From NCBI GenBank assembly GCA_964342815.1, contig CAYFHS010000008.1, forward strand, positions 32,001 to 96,000: DNA of 64,000 bases, written 5' to 3'. How positions within the stretch are numbered: position 1 is the first letter of the stretch; each line of letters starts with the position of its first letter. Shown here one piece after another: positions 35,423-42,814 of this stretch. The position numbers and the translations under genes are program-made. The notes under the pieces were generated by a model. It was not told the origin of the DNA, searched no databases, and saw only the letters and a program-made list of their open reading frames with translations. Origin of the DNA: an uncultured archaeon. GTDB lineage: Archaea; Thermoplasmatota; Penumbrarchaeia; JASLWR01.

Positions 35423-36697
35423 ATGCTTGAAATACTACATGATTGGAATCCGTGGTGGTCTCGGAAAAACTCCGTGGATAGATTCGCTGGAAAAGAAAGA
35501 CCAAAGTATCTTGCACCATTACTGGATTTAATAGACAAGAAACATGTTATTTCCGTCGTTGGTATCAGAAGATGCGGAAAAACGACATTGCTATATCAGG
35601 TAATAAAGCATTTACTCCAAACACACAATCCGGAAAATATAATCTATCTGAACATGGACGACGAACGCCTGGTGGGTCTTGAACAACCACTTGAAATGCT
35701 TTTACAAGAATACAAACGAAGTACCGAAACCAACGGGAAGAAAACCTATATCTTTCTCGATGAAGTCCAAAATATAATCGCATGGGAAAAGTGGGTCAAG
35801 AGATATTACGATCAGAAGAAAGAATACAAATTCATTGTCTCGGGGTCCTCCTCCTCGCTTCTCGGTTCCGATTATTCATCACTACTTACCGGTAGGAACA
35901 TAACCATTGAAATCTTTCCACTTACTTTCGAAGAGTATCTCGCTTTTAACGGCTTTGATTTTTCAATGGGAGATATTAAAGCTATCTGGACAAAGAACCG
36001 CAAACTGGAAGACCGGATAATATATCATCTGGAAAGATATATGAAAACGGGGGGTTTCCCTGAAGTGGTTCTCGGCCATGGAGGGCACAAACTCCTTGAG
36101 CAATACTTTTCCGACATTCTATACAGGGATATAATAAAAAGGCACAAGGTCAGACATCCCGATAAACTGGAGCTTCTTGCAGTCTTCGCAATGAGAAATA
36201 TTTCAAACCTGCTATCTTTGAGAAAGATCAGCCGTGTGACAGGCCTGAGTGTTGACACTGTAAAGGAATATATAGGGTACCTGGAGGAAGCGTATTTGCT
36301 CTTCACCAGTCGAAATTTTACGAGATCCGCCGTGGATTCACTGAGACAGGCCAGCCCGATAAAGATCTATTGTAACGATGTGGGCATGGCAAATTCGCTG
36401 CTGCTCGAACCCATGAGAAATCTCGGCAGCATGGCTGAAAACCTGGCCGCCCAGAAGGTGAAATACGAATGGGGGCAGTGTTTCTATTGGAGGGATACAA
36501 AGGAAATCGATATTGTCGTTCCCAAAAACAGGAGCGCCTATCAGGTTACCTATGGTCCCATAAAAACGCGCGAGATGGAAAACTTTTCAAAATTCCCTTA
36601 CAAGGATTTCAAAAAAAAGTTGATCAGTTATGATGTATATGAACCTCTGAACAGTATTCCCATAATACCTTTGTGGACATTTTTACTCCGGAAATGA
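35423..36697 (+). CDS. AAA-family ATPase with DUF4143-type C-terminus (COG1373-like)
   Basis: NPWW, GIRRCGKTT, FLDEVQ, SGSSS, LTGR, GGFPE, KIY..DVG, AEN, EIDIV. Confidence 0.88.
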   Translation: MLEILHDWNPWWSRKNSVDRFAGKERPKYLAPLLDLIDKKHVISVVGIRRCGKTTLLYQVIKHLLQTHNPENIIYLNMDDERLVGLEQPLEMLLQEYKRSTETNGKKTYIFLDEVQNIIAWEKWVKRYYDQKKEYKFIVSGSSSSLLGSDYSSLLTGRNITIEIFPLTFEEYLAFNGFDFSMGDIKAIWTKNRKLEDRIIYHLERYMKTGGFPEVVLGHGGHKLLEQYFSDILYRDIIKRHKVRHPDKLELLAVFAMRNISNLLSLRKISRVTGLSVDTVKEYIGYLEEAYLLFTSRNFTRSAVDSLRQASPIKIYCNDVGMANSLLLEPMRNLGSMAENLAAQKVKYEWGQCFYWRDTKEIDIVVPKNRSAYQVTYGPIKTREMENFSKFPYKDFKKKLISYDVYEPLNSIPIIPLWTFLLRK

Positions 36698-36801: not shown

Positions 36802-37197
36802 TTGTTTCCTGCTGATGAAGAATTTTTAGAAAGAAATTATTATATGTTATTAAGAGAATGTCAAACATCGTTACAAAAGGGCTGTCTGACGGGAAAGAAC
36901 TACACCGAAGTACTCGACTGTGAAAGACACTTTGGATTTGCAGGCCCACAGAGACATTACTTTGCTCGGATCGCCAACCGCTGCTCGTACGTCCTCCATG
37001 AAACGGAATCTGTTCCGTTTCATCCGAGTGGTGCAGAGCACCCGAGGAAGGTAAGCGCCGGAGGCGTATGCGACGTCAGCCGCTATTTTGGGGTAAAGCC
37101 CTTTCCTAAAGGGCTTGCGGGCATCCACCTGTTCCTCGGTGAGTATTACAGGGATACGGGCCACCTTGAAGTTGTTGAAGAAGTTGGAGGTAAATAA
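36802..37197 (+). pseudogene. Remnant of a TPR gene 3' end, interrupted by a hairpin-rich in-frame insertion
   Basis: IANRCSYVL and IHLFLGEYYRDT match the C-terminus of 40115..42814 but are separated by 38 unrelated codons. The upstream part shows no clear homology. Confidence 0.7.
36998..37116. mobile_element. Small palindromic insertion (MITE/REP-like), net +114 nt
   Basis: Perfect 11-bp hairpin ATGAAACGGAA-TCTG-TTCCGTTTCAT at the left end and 9-bp hairpin AAGCCCTTT-CCT-AAAGGGCTT at the right end. It is absent from the paralogous copies. Confidence 0.55.
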
Positions 37198-38414
37198 TGC
37201 TGTTTGAAAAAATTAATTCCCTTGATGAGCTGCAGCCCATCATCGAACTTTATTATCGCGCCGTTCAAGCGGGGAATTATAATGAGGCTAAAAATCTATA
37301 CCGCGACAAATTAAGAGTGATATTATTTTTTCAGTTCGGAGCTTATTCGACTTTGATAGAAATAAATACCGCAATGTTTGAAAATGGCGATTTTACCAAA
37401 CCATTTTTGGAAAACAATTCAAGTATAACAATGCTCTTAAATGATACCGCAAATTGTTTCTCACTCTCCGGTCATCCACGACGTGCCATCCCTGTTTTTG
37501 ATCAAGCAAAGAGACATGCAGAGAAAATATATAATAAGAAAAATGTTGCCATCTGCCTCGGTAATCTCGCCACTCAACAGTTAAACCTTGCCGATCTGGA
37601 ATCCGCCGAGTTCAACCTACGGCGACAAATCAAGATTGCAAAAGAGATTCGAGATCTATTCAATGATGCGAACGGCCATACTGAAGCGGGCAGATTATTA
37701 TTATTCTGTGGAAATTTTGATACATCGGAACATGATTTGAATGAAGCTATCAAACTATGGGAAATACAAGACCATACACAAATGATAGGTGTCTCATGGT
37801 CCTACCGCTCCCTCCGTGCTCTTATTATGGCCGATGCTATGGAAGCTTTGAAATTTGCGGCCAAAGCACTCGAATTTGCAAAAGAGGGCGAAGAAACCGA
37901 TGGGAGAACCACGAGAGATTTTATTGTTGCGAATTACTACATAGGAGCTTCCTACGTTGCGATGAAAGACGTAAAAAATGCCGAACCACCACTGAACTTC
38001 GCCATCACCGAATGCCGAAAGATCAACCTCGTCGAACTCGAAACCCCCATCCTCCTCGAACTCGCCAAACTCCGCCATCTCCAGAAGAAAGAAGATGAAT
38101 CCCTCTCCCTCGCCACTGAAGCCCACACCATCGCCAACCGCTGCTCGTACGTACTCCAGCAGGCCGACATCGAGCAGTTCCTGGGCGAGTTCTATCTAGA
38201 TCAGGGCGACATAGAAAAAGCCAGGAAGTACCTTGAGGATTGTATAGAGCACTGCACCCATTGTTGGCGGTATAGTGAAGGTGAGCCTGACTTTGACTAT
38301 GTAAGGAAGGAGGATGACTTTTATTATGTTAAGAAGGAGGAGAAGTGGTGGTACAGACCGAGGTGGGAAAAGGCTAATAAATTACTTAAAGAGTTGGAGG
38401 TAAAAAATGGTTGA
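37197..38414 (+). CDS. Stand-alone TPR protein homologous to the sensor region of the neighbouring STAND protein
   Basis: IIELYY..G.Y.EA..LYRD.L, SAEFN, IGASY..M.D...AE..LNFA.TECRK.NL and IANRCSYVLQQADI are all shared with the last ~390 aa of 40115..42814. GGAGGT RBS and TAATG overlap with the upstream remnant. Confidence 0.85.
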   Translation: MLFEKINSLDELQPIIELYYRAVQAGNYNEAKNLYRDKLRVILFFQFGAYSTLIEINTAMFENGDFTKPFLENNSSITMLLNDTANCFSLSGHPRRAIPVFDQAKRHAEKIYNKKNVAICLGNLATQQLNLADLESAEFNLRRQIKIAKEIRDLFNDANGHTEAGRLLLFCGNFDTSEHDLNEAIKLWEIQDHTQMIGVSWSYRSLRALIMADAMEALKFAAKALEFAKEGEETDGRTTRDFIVANYYIGASYVAMKDVKNAEPPLNFAITECRKINLVELETPILLELAKLRHLQKKEDESLSLATEAHTIANRCSYVLQQADIEQFLGEFYLDQGDIEKARKYLEDCIEHCTHCWRYSEGEPDFDYVRKEDDFYYVKKEEKWWYRPRWEKANKLLKELEVKNG

Positions 38415-40113
38415 CCTATCAAGATTTCAAATTCCTCCTCCTTCACATTGGCAAGAGTTTGAATCTATTTGCTGTGATTTATGGAGAGAGATTTGGAAAG
38501 ACCCTAATGCCGTATTACATGGGAGAAGGGGGCAGGCCCAACAGGGTGTTGATGCCTATGGACAACCTGATAAAGGACGAAAATGGGCAGCAGTTCAATG
38601 TAAAGGTAAAGATAACTATTCTGAAAAAACACTGACTGAGGAAGATGTAACAAAAGAAGTGGACAATGCAAAGAAATTCAGTCCTAAATTGTCCGAATTT
38701 ATTATTGCCACATCTGGGCAAAGGGATGCGAGTATCCAGAAGTTGGTTCGAGAGATTTCTCAGAAGAACCTAAATGACGGGTTGTTTTCGGTTCATGTTT
38801 GGTTTTGGGATGATATTATAGGTAAAATGGGGGAATTCCCTAACGTGATAGAAAAGCATATTCCAAAAGAAATTATCGAGGTTAGATCTAGTGAAACGAA
38901 AGGAAAGAATTGCGAAGATAAATCATTTCATTCACCTCGCGATTTAAAATATAATTTTCCAGAGAAAATCCAAACGGAAAAGGGAGATTTACTCAGTTCT
39001 AACGAGATTATCCATGAAAAATCTAACAAATACAATATTTTTGAAATAAATTCGGACCTTCTTAAATGGAAAGACATTCCTTCTGAGATATTGTCATATG
39101 AAAGCGGAACAATATCAATTTGGGTTGAAGTGAAAGAAGAACACTTAACAAAAGGGATGGTGAATAAAGGAAGATTTATCATTAGTCATTCAACAAGTAA
39201 ACAAAAGAACGAATTTGGATTTTACCCAAATACCTTTTCTTTAAAAAGGAATGAAACGGCTGAACGAGTATTTTGGGAATTTGTCTGGAGTGATAATAAG
39301 AAAAGAAATACCATTCCAAGTGAACCATCTTTAAACATAAAAGCGGATTGGCATCTCTTTTCAATATCCTGGTCAAAAAGGAGGAATTCAGTAAAGTTCT
39401 ACATTAACGGAAAACCACAAAATGGAGAAAAAACACAAGACAACTGGCCGTACGCTGATAACACCGGAATTATTTTCATAGGTAGATGGATTCGTCCAAA
39501 TAAAAAATCTTATTTTAATAGTAGAATTGGCCCATATATTATTTATAACAAAGCAATTACAATTGAGGAAATTGACCGGTTCTATCAATTATTAAAACAA
39601 ATTCTATCAAAATCTCTCATAAATATCCCAATAATACACAAACAAAATGATTTTCCAGAAATGGTTGAAATTAAGCACGGAATGAAAGAATCATTCTTAA
39701 TAAATATTTTAATGAAAAAATTAACATTAAAAGCTAGAATAAATTTACACCGGGAAGCGGGGAATGCTCACTTATTGATTATCCGTGTGAATAATATTCT
39801 CCTCAATAGATGTTATATTATGAACAAGAGTGAAATGAAGCGTTTTCCGAAAAAACCTGAAGGTGAAGCATGGTTCGACCGAGAAATCAAAGCTTGGCAT
39901 TTGTGCTATAGTCCTGATTTTCAGTCAAACTATAGGGATAAAAATTATGCAGTAATCGATGATGATCCATATGAATTTGAATTTGACCTATCAGTAATTA
40001 AACCCGATGATAATAATCAATATTTAATAGAATTCGAACATAGTGGATTGACTGGAGGTAACGCATATAGGAATCCAGTGGTTATCCGAGATATAAAAGT
40101 AGAGGGATTCTGA
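38407..40113 (+). CDS. Mrr-like PD-(D/E/Q)xK restriction-endonuclease domain fused to a LamG/concanavalin-like domain and an unknown C-terminal domain
   Basis: PPPSHWQEFESICCDLW..GRRGQAQQGVDAYG..VQCK nuclease; GTISIWV..WHLFSISW..VKFYINGK..FNSRIG LamG pattern. No signal peptide. AT-rich. Confidence 0.75.
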   Translation: MVDLSRFQIPPPSHWQEFESICCDLWREIWKDPNAVLHGRRGQAQQGVDAYGQPDKGRKWAAVQCKGKDNYSEKTLTEEDVTKEVDNAKKFSPKLSEFIIATSGQRDASIQKLVREISQKNLNDGLFSVHVWFWDDIIGKMGEFPNVIEKHIPKEIIEVRSSETKGKNCEDKSFHSPRDLKYNFPEKIQTEKGDLLSSNEIIHEKSNKYNIFEINSDLLKWKDIPSEILSYESGTISIWVEVKEEHLTKGMVNKGRFIISHSTSKQKNEFGFYPNTFSLKRNETAERVFWEFVWSDNKKRNTIPSEPSLNIKADWHLFSISWSKRRNSVKFYINGKPQNGEKTQDNWPYADNTGIIFIGRWIRPNKKSYFNSRIGPYIIYNKAITIEEIDRFYQLLKQILSKSLINIPIIHKQNDFPEMVEIKHGMKESFLINILMKKLTLKARINLHREAGNAHLLIIRVNNILLNRCYIMNKSEMKRFPKKPEGEAWFDREIKAWHLCYSPDFQSNYRDKNYAVIDDDPYEFEFDLSVIKPDDNNQYLIEFEHSGLTGGNAYRNPVVIRDIKVEGF

Positions 40114-40114
40114 A

Positions 40115-42814
40115 ATGGAAAAAAGCCGAGATATCCCCGCAGATGTCCTCGACAAATTACTCGTAGACGCTCATTTCAGATGTGCCATTTGTCCCGAGCA
40201 TAGAGATATCAGAAATATTCATCACATCGTACCATTCCGCAAGAACGGACCAAATTCTGAAAGCAACCTGATCGTGGTATGCCCCAATTGTCATGAAAGC
40301 ATTCACCGAAATCCAAGAGTCTATACGAAAAAACGAGTGAAAATGGCTAAACAGAAATGGATTGATATTTGCTCGAAATCATCTTTATCATTGCAAGAGA
40401 AAATTGCCCAATCTCCTGGAATCGAGCTTGAAAAAAAATCCCCCCTCATCTTCATCCCTCACCCATACCCCGAGGCGCCAAACTTCACCGGCAGGAAAAA
40501 GGAGCGGGGGGCCATGCTTACCAAGTGGCTCTTGGAGGATACGGAGCATCCACTGTTATCTATGGTAGCGATTGGAGGAATGGGGAAGAGCGCCTTGACG
40601 TGGAGGTGGCTGCAGGAGGATGTTATAGGGAAGGGTGTGGAGTTTGATGGAATTGTTTGGTGGAGCTTTTATGAAAGAGAAGCTACTTTTCAAGCATTTA
40701 TCAACGAAATGATAGGTATCTTATTTCCAGAAAAGGAAAAGGAACTTCTGCAAAGGTCAGACAGGGAAAAGATAGATCTCATTTTGCTAGAATTCACTAG
40801 AAATAATTTTCTTATAGTTTTCGATGGTTTCGAAAGGACATTGCGGGCTTATGCTTTAGCGGGTTTATCCGTATGTTACATTGGCGATGAATATCAAAAA
40901 GGTATAGGTGAGAAATTTCGTCAATGCCTTGATCTAAACTTATCTCAGTTCATTCGTTCATTGACAAATCCTCAATGCAAGACAAAAATGATAATGACCA
41001 CTCGATTGCATCCGCTCGATCTAAGAGGACTTATCGGAGTTCGGGAGGAAGAATTAACGAAAATAGACTCTAATGAGGCAGTTGAATTTTTTCACCGCCA
41101 GGGGGTGAAGGGTTCTGCACCTGAGATAAGACAAGCGTGTGCGAAATATGATTTTCTCCCGTTATGTTTACGTCTATTGTCAGGCGTACTTATCACATCT
41201 CAGAAGTATAAAGGTGATATCAAATACGTCAAGGAGATACCCGATCTGGTTTTAACCGATTCTGATGAGTATTACAAGGATTCTAAAAAGTTCGAACATA
41301 TCCTCCAGTTCTCGTATGACAAATTACCCGAAGAGGATAAGGCATTGATATCTGGCATTGCTGCATTCAGATCACCCATGGAATTCGAGGTATTGCGAAC
41401 CATATTCGGGAACGATGGGGATGAGGATACTTTCCGTGGGAAATTGGAGCCTCTGGAAAGAAGGGGATTACTGTTCAATGATATTGAAAAGGATTGTTAT
41501 GACCTCCATCCCATAGTACGAAGATACTGTTATGGACGATTAACGGCTCCGAAGGAAACACATGAGAGGATACGCTTTTATTTTAATAGAAAAGTGAAAG
41601 ATAAATTTGGTGAACTAGTAATTCCACAAAAAAAGTGGCTGATAACACCTGAAAAGGGAAAAGTTGAATCTACGCAAGAAATAGAGTTGGTGATTGAATT
41701 ATATCATCATACTATAAAGACAGGTCGTTATGATGAAGCATGGAAGTTATACAGAGATCGACTTTTAATAGCTGTTTATTACCATTTAAGAGATTTTAAC
41801 AAACAAATCGAATGTTTAACGGCATTATTTGGAGTTGATAGTGAACTTCCTAAACTGAAGAAAGGATCTTATATAGCTCATTGTTGTTATGAGCTTGCAA
41901 ATGCCTATTCAACATCAGGTAAACCCATTGAAGCAGCAAAACTCTACATGAAAGCATCAAGATTAGCAAAAAGGATGAAACAACAACGATATATTGGTAG
42001 GGCTTTAGTAAATCTTGCTAAAAGAATGATTGATATAGGCGATTTTAAATCTGCCGAATTCAATATAACAAAAATGATTAAAATTTCAAAAATTATTAAT
42101 ATGAAATTTGACGAAGCGTATGGCCATCGCTTATTGAGTATATTACATATAAATTGTGCTGAATACGAAAAATCTATAAAAGAAGCGGACAAAGTTTTAA
42201 AATTGGTAGAGGATGAAGCCCCACATCAAATTGTTACGATTCATTATTACCAAGCCCTCCGAGCTCTCCTTATGAACCAACCTAAAAAAGCTGTTAAAAC
42301 TGCAAATGACGCGCTTATACTTGCGAAAAAATGGGAAGAGAATGAATATCAAGTTGCTAGTGATTTCATTTGGGGTCACAAGCTCATTGGTGCCTCATAT
42401 TTAGTAATGAATGACACAAAGGAAGCTGAATCTCACCTTAATTTTGCATTAACTGAATGTCGTAAGTATAATCTTATTAAAATCGAAGCAGTAGTATTAT
42501 TAGAACTTTCAAGATTGAATCATCTACTAAGTAATGAAAAAGAATCTTTAAATCTTGCCACCGAAGCCCTTGAGATCGCCAACCGCTGCTCATACGTACT
42601 CCAGCAAGCCGACATCCACCTGTTTCTCGGCGAGTACTACAGGGATACGGACGACCTTGAACTTGCGAGGGAGCACGCGGGGTTGGCGAAGCTCAGGAGT
42701 CATCAGATGGTGGATGTTGAGACGGGGGATTATATTACGAAGGACGAAGGGACAAAGTGGAAGTACAAGCCGTGCTATGATAAGGCCAAAGCTCTTTTGG
42801 ATACCTTATCTTAA
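40115..42814 (+). CDS. HNH nuclease - STAND (NB-ARC-like) NTPase - TPR protein (Avs/NLR-like)
   Basis: CAIC..NIHHI..N...NLIVVCPNCH..IH; NFTGR; Walker A GGMGKS; Walker B FLIVFDG; MTTR; LPLCLRL; YDLHPIVR; C-terminal TPRs. Confidence 0.9.
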   Translation: MEKSRDIPADVLDKLLVDAHFRCAICPEHRDIRNIHHIVPFRKNGPNSESNLIVVCPNCHESIHRNPRVYTKKRVKMAKQKWIDICSKSSLSLQEKIAQSPGIELEKKSPLIFIPHPYPEAPNFTGRKKERGAMLTKWLLEDTEHPLLSMVAIGGMGKSALTWRWLQEDVIGKGVEFDGIVWWSFYEREATFQAFINEMIGILFPEKEKELLQRSDREKIDLILLEFTRNNFLIVFDGFERTLRAYALAGLSVCYIGDEYQKGIGEKFRQCLDLNLSQFIRSLTNPQCKTKMIMTTRLHPLDLRGLIGVREEELTKIDSNEAVEFFHRQGVKGSAPEIRQACAKYDFLPLCLRLLSGVLITSQKYKGDIKYVKEIPDLVLTDSDEYYKDSKKFEHILQFSYDKLPEEDKALISGIAAFRSPMEFEVLRTIFGNDGDEDTFRGKLEPLERRGLLFNDIEKDCYDLHPIVRRYCYGRLTAPKETHERIRFYFNRKVKDKFGELVIPQKKWLITPEKGKVESTQEIELVIELYHHTIKTGRYDEAWKLYRDRLLIAVYYHLRDFNKQIECLTALFGVDSELPKLKKGSYIAHCCYELANAYSTSGKPIEAAKLYMKASRLAKRMKQQRYIGRALVNLAKRMIDIGDFKSAEFNITKMIKISKIINMKFDEAYGHRLLSILHINCAEYEKSIKEADKVLKLVEDEAPHQIVTIHYYQALRALLMNQPKKAVKTANDALILAKKWEENEYQVASDFIWGHKLIGASYLVMNDTKEAESHLNFALTECRKYNLIKIEAVVLLELSRLNHLLSNEKESLNLATEALEIANRCSYVLQQADIHLFLGEYYRDTDDLELAREHAGLAKLRSHQMVDVETGDYITKDEGTKWKYKPCYDKAKALLDTLS

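Follow-up and report, generated by a model that had tools for sequence, protein, structure and literature searches.

A gene of an uncultured archaeon, here called P0001, probably encodes a single-chain intracellular sensor of the NLR type, in which a STAND switch resembling NB-ARC proteins and PH0952 would govern a nuclease directed against invaders. The gene lies on a stretch of 64,000 nucleotides (nt) of contig CAYFHS010000008.1 (assembly GCA_964342815.1, Thermoplasmatota), referred to below as the window, and all coordinates are positions in it. In the list of open reading frames (ORFs) and its translation, P0001 is a single unbroken frame at exactly 40115-42814 of the forward strand. An earlier reading of the sequence (the original prediction) had proposed an effector, a STAND NTPase and tetratricopeptide repeats (TPRs) in the manner of NLR and Avs proteins, and our analysis supports this tripartite layout. 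An AlphaFold2 (AF2) model of P0001 from a 100-sequence alignment (predicted local distance difference test, pLDDT, 87.1; predicted template-modeling score, pTM, 0.80) shows, from N- to C-terminus, a small HNH domain (moderately confident), a linker that is disordered over aa 61-110, a NOD, an arm of helices and a run of 17 TPR-type helices closed by a cap. The gene and its parts, in amino acids (aa), are:

40115..42814, forward strand: whole gene P0001, 899 aa plus stop, with HNH, linker, NB-ARC-type NOD, arm/TPR sensor and C-terminal cap
40115..40312, forward strand: predicted HNH nuclease domain, aa 1-66, with a Cys4 zinc knuckle (C23, C26, C56, C59) and catalytic H37, N51 and H60
40313..40444, forward strand: flexible linker joining HNH to NTPase, aa 67-110, AF2 pLDDT <50 at aa 61-91 and 103-109
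40445..41548, forward strand: NOD, aa 111-478, with nucleotide-binding, helical and winged-helix domains
40574-40591, forward strand: Walker A (G154, G155, G157, K158)
40811-40837, forward strand: Walker B (D237, G238, E240, R241)
40994-41005, forward strand: sensor-1 TTR (T295, R297)
41153-41164, forward strand: LPL (P349, L350)
41501-41512, forward strand: DLHP, MHD-like (D463, H465, P466)
41549..42697, forward strand: arm and TPR sensor, aa 479-861, 17 helices from aa 520 forming ~8.5 hairpins (AF2 secondary structure and Pfam)
42698..42811, forward strand: C-terminal cap, aa 862-899, a beta-hairpin followed by a terminal helix, AF2 pLDDT 97-99

Each of the three functional parts was borne out individually. 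Pfam places HNH (PF01844) at aa 23-65 (E 2.3e-8; 34.5 bits against a cut-off of 21.4), the best NCBIfam match is the HNH region of IscB (E 2.3e-9), and a single-sequence search of the PDB returned HNH domains only (IscB, McrA and a group II intron maturase). C23, C26, H36, H37, E49, N51 and H60 are invariant, and C56 nearly so, across 16 HNH-type homologues. With its profile, catalytic His/Asn/His and zinc cysteines intact, the domain is a predicted nuclease. The middle part is a STAND NTPase, having a P-loop, Walker A and B, a sensor-1 Arg and a NOD with a winged-helix His. In an alignment of P0001 with 99 homologues, the residues of Walker A, Walker B, TTR, LPL and DLHP all fall in columns that are invariant or at least 90% conserved, as expected if the original prediction had identified these motifs correctly, and G154, G155, G157, K158, D237, E240, R297, D463 and H465 do not vary at all. 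Pfam NB-ARC (PF00931) scores 26.3 bits against a cut-off of 23.5 at aa 135-237, covering model positions 8-107 of 248 only; the homologues P0011 (37.3 bits) and P0007 (27.8 bits) likewise pass this cut-off. TPR_12 and TPR_2 score above their cut-offs at aa 588-823, and P0001 keeps 53 of 64 family-conserved sensor positions.

The fold relationships of the switch were assessed by modeling the NOD alone (pLDDT 87.5) and aligning it with VIA to 48,161 PDB representatives, with the following results:

NRC2: Z 21.2, 346 residues aligned
PH0952: Z 20.6, 310 residues aligned
MalT: Z 19.6, 333 residues aligned
Apaf-1: Z 18.8, 337 residues aligned
NLRP9: Z 13.9, 312 residues aligned
ORC/Cdc6: Z about 13, 199-277 residues aligned
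Avs3 (8dgc): Z 12.1, 215 residues aligned, nucleotide-binding subdomain only
Avs4 (8dgf): Z 11.1, 199 residues aligned, nucleotide-binding subdomain only
Avs5 (9nc9): Z 10.6, 177 residues aligned, nucleotide-binding subdomain only

A clear gap lies below NRC2, PH0952, MalT and Apaf-1, with no later group exceeding 13.9. Because of this gap, the modeled switch module is assigned to the NB-ARC/AP-ATPase-PH0952-MalT assemblage, to which it is nearer than to NACHT, Avs or ORC/Cdc6 proteins. The assemblage has been described as a set of related clades in which PH0952 is sister to Apaf-1 (Lisa et al., PMC6468293). The top Foldseek match of the whole P0001 model was PH0952 of Pyrococcus horikoshii (6MFV; E 1.6e-15, 762 columns), followed by Apaf-1, MalT, plant NRC NB-ARC domains and CED-4, with Avs3 (8dgc) in 47th place (E 1.6e-6). 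VIA aligned PH0952 with the whole model at Z 21.1 over 603 residues. A PDB profile search retrieved generic TPR proteins, PH0952 (E 1.2e-14) and AfsR, and no Avs was among its matches. The sensor region aligned best with APPBP2 (Z 29.4), Rap (27.3) and MalT domain III (27.1), and no Avs sensor occurred among the structural matches to it. The modeled sensor therefore has a generic superhelical TPR likeness by which no particular ligand is indicated.

PH0952, which is also archaeal, and MalT share the NOD-arm-TPR order, but at only 17-20% identity; PH0952 has a predicted ArsR-like DNA-binding domain as its effector and MalT activates transcription, both unlike the predicted HNH nuclease of P0001. 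Plant NLRs (NRC2, NRC1) and Apaf-1 share the NB-ARC match, the NOD fold and the MHD-type His, and P0001 may share their logic of ligand-triggered oligomerization. Unlike these proteins, P0001 has a prokaryotic host, a TPR sensor in place of leucine-rich or WD40 repeats, and an effector that is a predicted enzyme rather than a coiled-coil, CARD or TIR adaptor.

The relation to Avs proteins is looser. Avs1-5, Avs7 and later families have the same succession of N-terminal effector, often a nuclease, STAND NTPase and C-terminal TPR-like sensor. They are single-gene systems of patchy distribution whose effectors are heavily exchanged (PMC12803255). The family of P0001 similarly has effectors scattered over its core tree and no conserved partner gene, and in the broad sense shares the Avs trait of interchangeable effectors on an effector-STAND-sensor chain. 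In contrast, the NOD of P0001 aligns with Avs3/4/5 over the nucleotide-binding subdomain only, and the region behind the NOD is compact (~420 aa). In a search of PADLOC-DB v2, no Avs/AVAST model was listed for P0001 at E <= 0.1, where only HNH-effector and TPR fragments were hit, nor for any of 10 homologues with other effectors at E <= 0.001. Placement among Avs1-5 thus finds no PADLOC core match, and the NOD scores of 18.8-21.2 against NRC2, PH0952, MalT and Apaf-1 stand against 10.6-12.1 for Avs3/4/5. P0001 is Avs/NLR-like in architecture, and probably in logic, without belonging to Avs1-5 by the tests made.

P0001 represents a large family. A word-indexed search found 539 relatives among 8000 candidates scored; the best matches listed are 34-47% identical over ~80-100% of the query, a few over half of it only. 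A scan of one genome per species gave more than 599 stretches and at least 543 confirmed loci, the best 78 of which were surveyed for hosts and neighborhoods. Archaeal hosts among them are Thermoplasmata, Methanophagales, Methanoperedens, Bathyarchaeia and Altiarchaeales. The majority are bacterial (Zixibacteria, Acidobacteriota, Chloroflexota, Planctomycetota, Verrucomicrobiota, Cyanobacteria, Armatimonadota, Bacteroidota and others), so that, judged by sequence homology, receptor and sensor are not archaeal inventions and the family spans both prokaryotic domains. An archaeal receptor with its own sensor type had been proposed; instead, the same NTPase and TPR core at 34-47% identity is mostly bacterial in this sample. 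Presence is patchy, with the gene in 23 of 61 related genomes, and two to four copies occur at six of the 78 loci. Thermoplasmata archaeon SG225.bin14 (JAEHCK010000010.1; L005/L028/L030) carries five or more complete paralogues (935, 1057, 967, 955 and 1027 aa) arranged head to tail, whose N-termini are of unassigned, DUF4062 and HNH types and whose stops and starts overlap or abut. No neighbor family is conserved across the 78 loci, where recurrent 'families' proved to be antisense shadow ORFs, and this lack of a conserved partner fits a self-contained sensor-effector.

Much of the variation within the family concerns the effector. For the 120 best homologues, the sequence ahead of the P-loop was excised and grouped by clustering, a survey that the original prediction had proposed. 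On one core we found DUF4062 (51 proteins), HNH-type (21), TIR (9) and Mrr (2) domains, one each of DUF4365, EAD7 and a winged helix-turn-helix (wHTH), three clusters with weak membrane-protein matches and several unassigned N-termini. These N-terminal domains match PADLOC effector models, namely the TIR of ThsB (Thoeris)/bSEFIR, an Argonaute-associated REase (restriction endonuclease), the HNH of ZorE and the Mrr of ZorD. On a tree built from the core only (aa 112-899), HNH changes 18 times among its 21 carriers, at least 12 of these changes being forced by well-supported branches, which is no better than with shuffled labels. The strongly supported sisters of P0001 are P0007, with a TIR, and P0006, with an unassigned N-terminus. 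Effector swapping in the family is strongly supported by these comparisons, together with the break between P0001 and P0005 described below, and the suggestion that the effector is swappable stands. The most frequent alternative, DUF4062 (NIR), occurs on the NOD-TPR chassis of P0001 at 34-47% identity and has been demonstrated by experiment to act as an immune NADase effector in Avs2 and further NLR-like proteins (bioRxiv 10.64898/2026.09.04.749371). P0001 differs in having a predicted nuclease rather than a NADase, and the tested PsAvs2 has an Avs2 core unlike that of P0001.

We favor a defense role for P0001 because the swappable N-termini match PADLOC effectors, among them an immune NADase, and because the distribution is patchy, paralogues stand in tandem, and P0001 occupies a presence/absence island 3.4 kb downstream of a gene (P0004) that matches the candidate defense system PDC-S01. 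Further grounds are the absence of a conserved partner gene and the hallmarks reported by Lee et al. 2026 (PMC12803255 / PMC13581612), who resolved 589 STAND clades, 198 of them defense-associated, and named variable effectors and horizontal spread as typical of immunity-associated STANDs. From its architecture alone, P0001 probably has an antiviral, abortive-infection role. How it might work is suggested by analogy with PH0952/MalT, Apaf-1 and Avs proteins, with the autoinhibition model for resting PH0952 (PMC6468293) as template. At rest, the arm and TPR sensor would hold the ADP-bound NTPase closed. Binding of a ligand to the TPR sensor, most likely an invader's protein, from a virus or mobile element, would lift autoinhibition and allow ADP to be swapped for ATP. 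Oligomerization would then cluster the HNH domains via their flexible ~45-aa linkers, and the clustered nucleases would cleave DNA, halting the invader or killing the infected cell. Ligand-induced oligomerization, nuclease activation and the antiviral outcome are all steps that we infer. The literature searched contained neither infection or co-expression assays for the family nor an experimentally characterized archaeal STAND receptor.

Several observations weigh against a defense role. PH0952, the nearest protein of known structure, is predicted to be a transcription factor, and MalT has a regulatory role. The wHTH-bearing P0016, 42% identical to P0001 in its core, is nested among effector-bearing members, with a DUF4062 protein as its sister. 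PADLOC recognizes neither the core of P0001 nor that of the 10 homologues with other effectors. The neighborhoods of three homologues (P0007, P0043 and P0037) consist mostly of housekeeping genes, and P0001 itself differs from the consensus at 21 of 160 positions that are highly conserved in the family, a few of these changes being non-conservative. Finally, the TPR sensor is as much like peptide- or small-molecule-binding TPRs (Rap, MalT domain III) as like protein-binding sensors, so the ligand need not be viral. The regulators among its best profile or structure matches (PH0952, MalT and AfsR), P0016 and the housekeeping contexts would also suit a non-immune signaling STAND, for example a ligand-controlled regulator or a stress or cell-death switch like these proteins, with HNH providing a DNA-binding or processing output unrelated to viruses. 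We consider this unlikely. The HNH catalytic residues are intact and invariant; the alternatives to HNH in close relatives are NADases, other nucleases and weakly membrane-like modules, typical of cell-killing effectors; and presence/absence polymorphism, paralogue arrays and mosaicism are atypical of housekeeping regulators. With regulators nearby in fold and the wHTH member nested in the tree, we take the core to be a general-purpose switch, operated by a ligand, to which killing effectors have been joined many times over, and defense as the probable role of the HNH form. Grouping with non-defense STAND regulators, which the original prediction regarded as evidence against itself, was accordingly seen in part for the core (PH0952, MalT and P0016) and was not seen for the HNH-bearing form.

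Prokaryotic NLR-like sensors with swappable effectors are a well-established concept, to which P0001 adds a case rather than a new principle. Its value is as an archaeal representative of a very large, uncharacterized NB-ARC-TPR family, with unusually clean breakpoints and an island that preserves apparent recombination by-products. Since the NOD is structurally closest to plant NLR/Apaf-1 NB-ARC domains, the trigger and output of the family would bear on NB-ARC immune and cell-death switches before eukaryotes.

Clean mosaic breakpoints offer a concrete example of effector modules moving between receptors. P0001 and P0005 are 87% identical (85% in nt) over aa 1-172 and 41% identical (56% in nt) over aa 173-899. 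Two features of this region are relevant:

40400..40625, forward strand: GC-rich block of ~225 nt, G+C content (GC) 0.53-0.57 and third-position GC (GC3) 0.71 in 150-nt windows
40610..40680, forward strand: recombination breakpoint relative to P0005, an identity drop at aa 165-190 in a fine scan

The breakpoint lies past the P-loop, where the GC-rich block ends on its 3' side. Given so sharp a break, and since P0005 is not a sister of P0001 on the core tree, the sequences indicate that a module of HNH, linker, pre-NOD motif and P-loop has been exchanged between divergent cores. A swap boundary had originally been placed near 40440, at the junction of effector and NTPase; the mapped position moves it downstream and brings the P-loop into the exchanged module. 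The GC step described at that junction fares no better as a compositional boundary. GC is equal in the two domains (0.407 for HNH, aa 1-100; 0.403 for NTPase, aa 146-515), and the jump at 40440 reaches the 91st percentile only of the window. GC rises at ~40400, and the greatest shift within the gene is the drop at ~40650-40700. The actual feature is the GC-rich conserved block, which encodes the most conserved pre-NTPase/pre-NOD motif of the family and the P-loop (Walker A). The P0005 gene, with GC of 0.39 / 0.58 / 0.38, has the same pattern as P0001. A second GC-rich block (42575-42800; 0.52-0.57) occurs at the conserved 3' end of P0001 and mirrors the first.

Breaks are not confined to the N-terminal module. 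Identity between P0001 and P0007 is 64% to about aa 473 and 37% thereafter, identity with P0014 is 39% and then 71% from about aa 758, and other pairs in the family break at aa 396-433. With these additional breakpoints inside the core, the family appears broadly mosaic rather than jointed at two places. A stricter scheme would have the GC-rich, nucleotide-conserved blocks at 40400-40625 and 42574-42665 act as recombination joints at which 5' effector and 3' sensor modules are swapped among paralogues and lineages. P0001 would then be a three-way mosaic (N-terminus P0005-like, NOD P0007-like, C-terminus P0014-like), and the paralogue P0003 and a decayed remnant, both described below, would be intermediates or spare parts. 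A pairwise change-point scan weakens this two-joint cassette model, since breakpoints are spread over aa ~187, ~396-473 and ~705-758; we hold it to be conceivable yet doubtful.

P0001 is the last gene of an island of ~7.9 kb (~35.2 kb to 43.0 kb) whose four genes have a GC of 0.34-0.43. In a genome of the same genus (G001) the flanks are kept (PAP2 and IF-2B family on one side; MeaB, B12-binding and ETF on the other) and the island is not. Between the IF-2B-family gene and meaB, G001 retains an open stretch of 124 aa (L009, 1486-1860) that is 75% identical to P0001 aa 782-897. Since G001 has the same flanks with this 3' remnant only, the interval qualifies as a presence/absence island, and the sequence points to deletion of the remainder in G001. 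Four marine metagenome studies contain sequences 100% identical to pieces drawn from the whole island; the source genome (4.35 Mb, 89% complete) also has DNA that recurs in marine metagenomes. The matching sequences are DNA contigs, and no RNA data set with this DNA was listed among the public runs. The other island features are:

35423..36697, forward strand: P0004, AAA_14/DUF4143 ATPase, candidate defense gene at the left edge of the island
36969..37196, forward strand: decayed 3'-end remnant of another paralogue, recognized by translation, DNA alignment and repeat families D2, D3 and D5
37197..38414, forward strand: P0003, TPR-only paralogue of 405 aa, overlapping the P0002 start by 8 nt
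38407..40113, forward strand: P0002, 568 aa, with an Mrr-like PD-(D/E)xK N-domain, a LamG-like domain and an unassigned C-terminal domain
42574..42665, forward strand: nucleotide-conserved 3' anchor in P0001, common to P0003 (38129-38220) and the remnant (36969-37174), repeat families D1-D3

An island that holds a remnant and a possibly truncated paralogue, and that has been lost from G001, raises the question whether P0001 itself is intact-looking yet functionally decaying, with no current function in a degenerating island. Its long branch (0.6) and its 21 departures from consensus would fit. This we judge very improbable, for the 2.7-kb frame is open, all catalytic and switch residues are kept, the AF2 model is confident and the identical sequence recurs in several marine samples.

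Packing within the island suggests another arrangement. The spacing of P0003, P0002 and P0001 resembles that of co-translated genes: the first two share 8 nt, a single nt separates the P0002 stop from the P0001 ATG, and a GAGGG motif lies upstream of that ATG. Like paired NLRs, P0003 as a free TPR sensor and P0002 as an Mrr-like nuclease with lectin-like domains might modulate, guard or extend P0001 in a co-transcribed three-gene system. P0003 is 40% identical to P0001 aa 516-898 (BLASTP, E 4e-83), and its end, homologous to the P0001 cap, matches NCBIfam TPR_END_plus. It copies the sensor at full length without any stop, a GGAGGT motif precedes its ATG, and it retains 51 of the 64 conserved sensor positions, close to the 53 of P0001. 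However, the near-invariant 'HHT' at the start of the arm is replaced by 'YRA', and P0003 is preceded by the decayed remnant, so it may be a 5'-truncated leftover. P0002 matches Laminin_G_3 (E 3.7e-11) and, weakly, Mrr_cat in Pfam. Its N-domain (~155 aa with a GVD...QCK motif) is a conflict-system module of wide occurrence: 3690 cluster representatives contain it, nearly always at the N-terminus. Elsewhere this domain is fused to TPR-PIN, TIR, SIR2 and other modules. Among the representatives are a TIR/GGDEF/HD-CE protein and a large class of ~1300 aa in which TPRs and the PIN domain known from the 'TPR-GreAB-C-PIN' system occur. By contrast, full-length P0002 relatives, with LamG and C-terminal domains, were not found outside the source lineage, no relative of P0002 or P0004 lies near any of the 78 homologous loci, and the P0003-P0002-P0001 combination was not found elsewhere. 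Recurrence of the whole island in identical pieces favors a three-gene system, and the fact that apparent sensor-only homologues elsewhere all begin less than 100 nt from contig ends counts against it. We give such a system little credence and retain the single-chain sensor as the probable form. A structural search with the P0002 C-terminus gave beta-sandwich-like leads only, with uninformative feature scores of 0.76.

P0004 matches AAA_14 (E 1.8e-39) and DUF4143 (E 5e-20) in Pfam and the PDC-S01 candidate system in PADLOC (E 5e-95). Among the three homologue contexts inspected, one has AAA_14/DUF4143 and DUF4276 genes within 10 kb. There, an AAA_14/DUF4143 gene lies ~6 kb from the HNH homologue P0043 (L108) and adjoins a DUF4276 gene.

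Scans of the island for other elements gave little. No att-like direct repeats flank it, and the window contains no tRNA genes or Rfam families. A scan for sigma-70 promoters and terminators, which has little meaning for an archaeon, gave counts close to those expected from shuffling. The remnant is split within the anchor motif by an in-frame, GC-rich insert of ~118 nt (~36998-37116) with hairpins at each end, which occurs only once in the 4.35-Mb assembly and lacks an Rfam match. Conservation of the anchor at synonymous third positions is 22/32 versus 60/125 elsewhere, a modest difference (Fisher p = 0.047).

A 31-nt joint of 'gene end + GGAGGT + ATG' occurs twice at 77% identity, before P0003 (37169-37199) and before P0002 (38379-38409). 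This recurrence makes it look as though P0003 acquired its start context as a copy of the junction usually found behind a TPR gene. The sensor-only homologues P0146, P0162 and P0173 were considered as a free-sensor form and rejected; their starts lie 62-94 nt from contig ends, and they are probably truncated calls of full-length genes. Metagenome contigs of relatives (L023, L024 and L026) repeatedly break off 60-95 nt ahead of the sensor region, which suggests that assemblies break inside these genes through repeats or strain variation.

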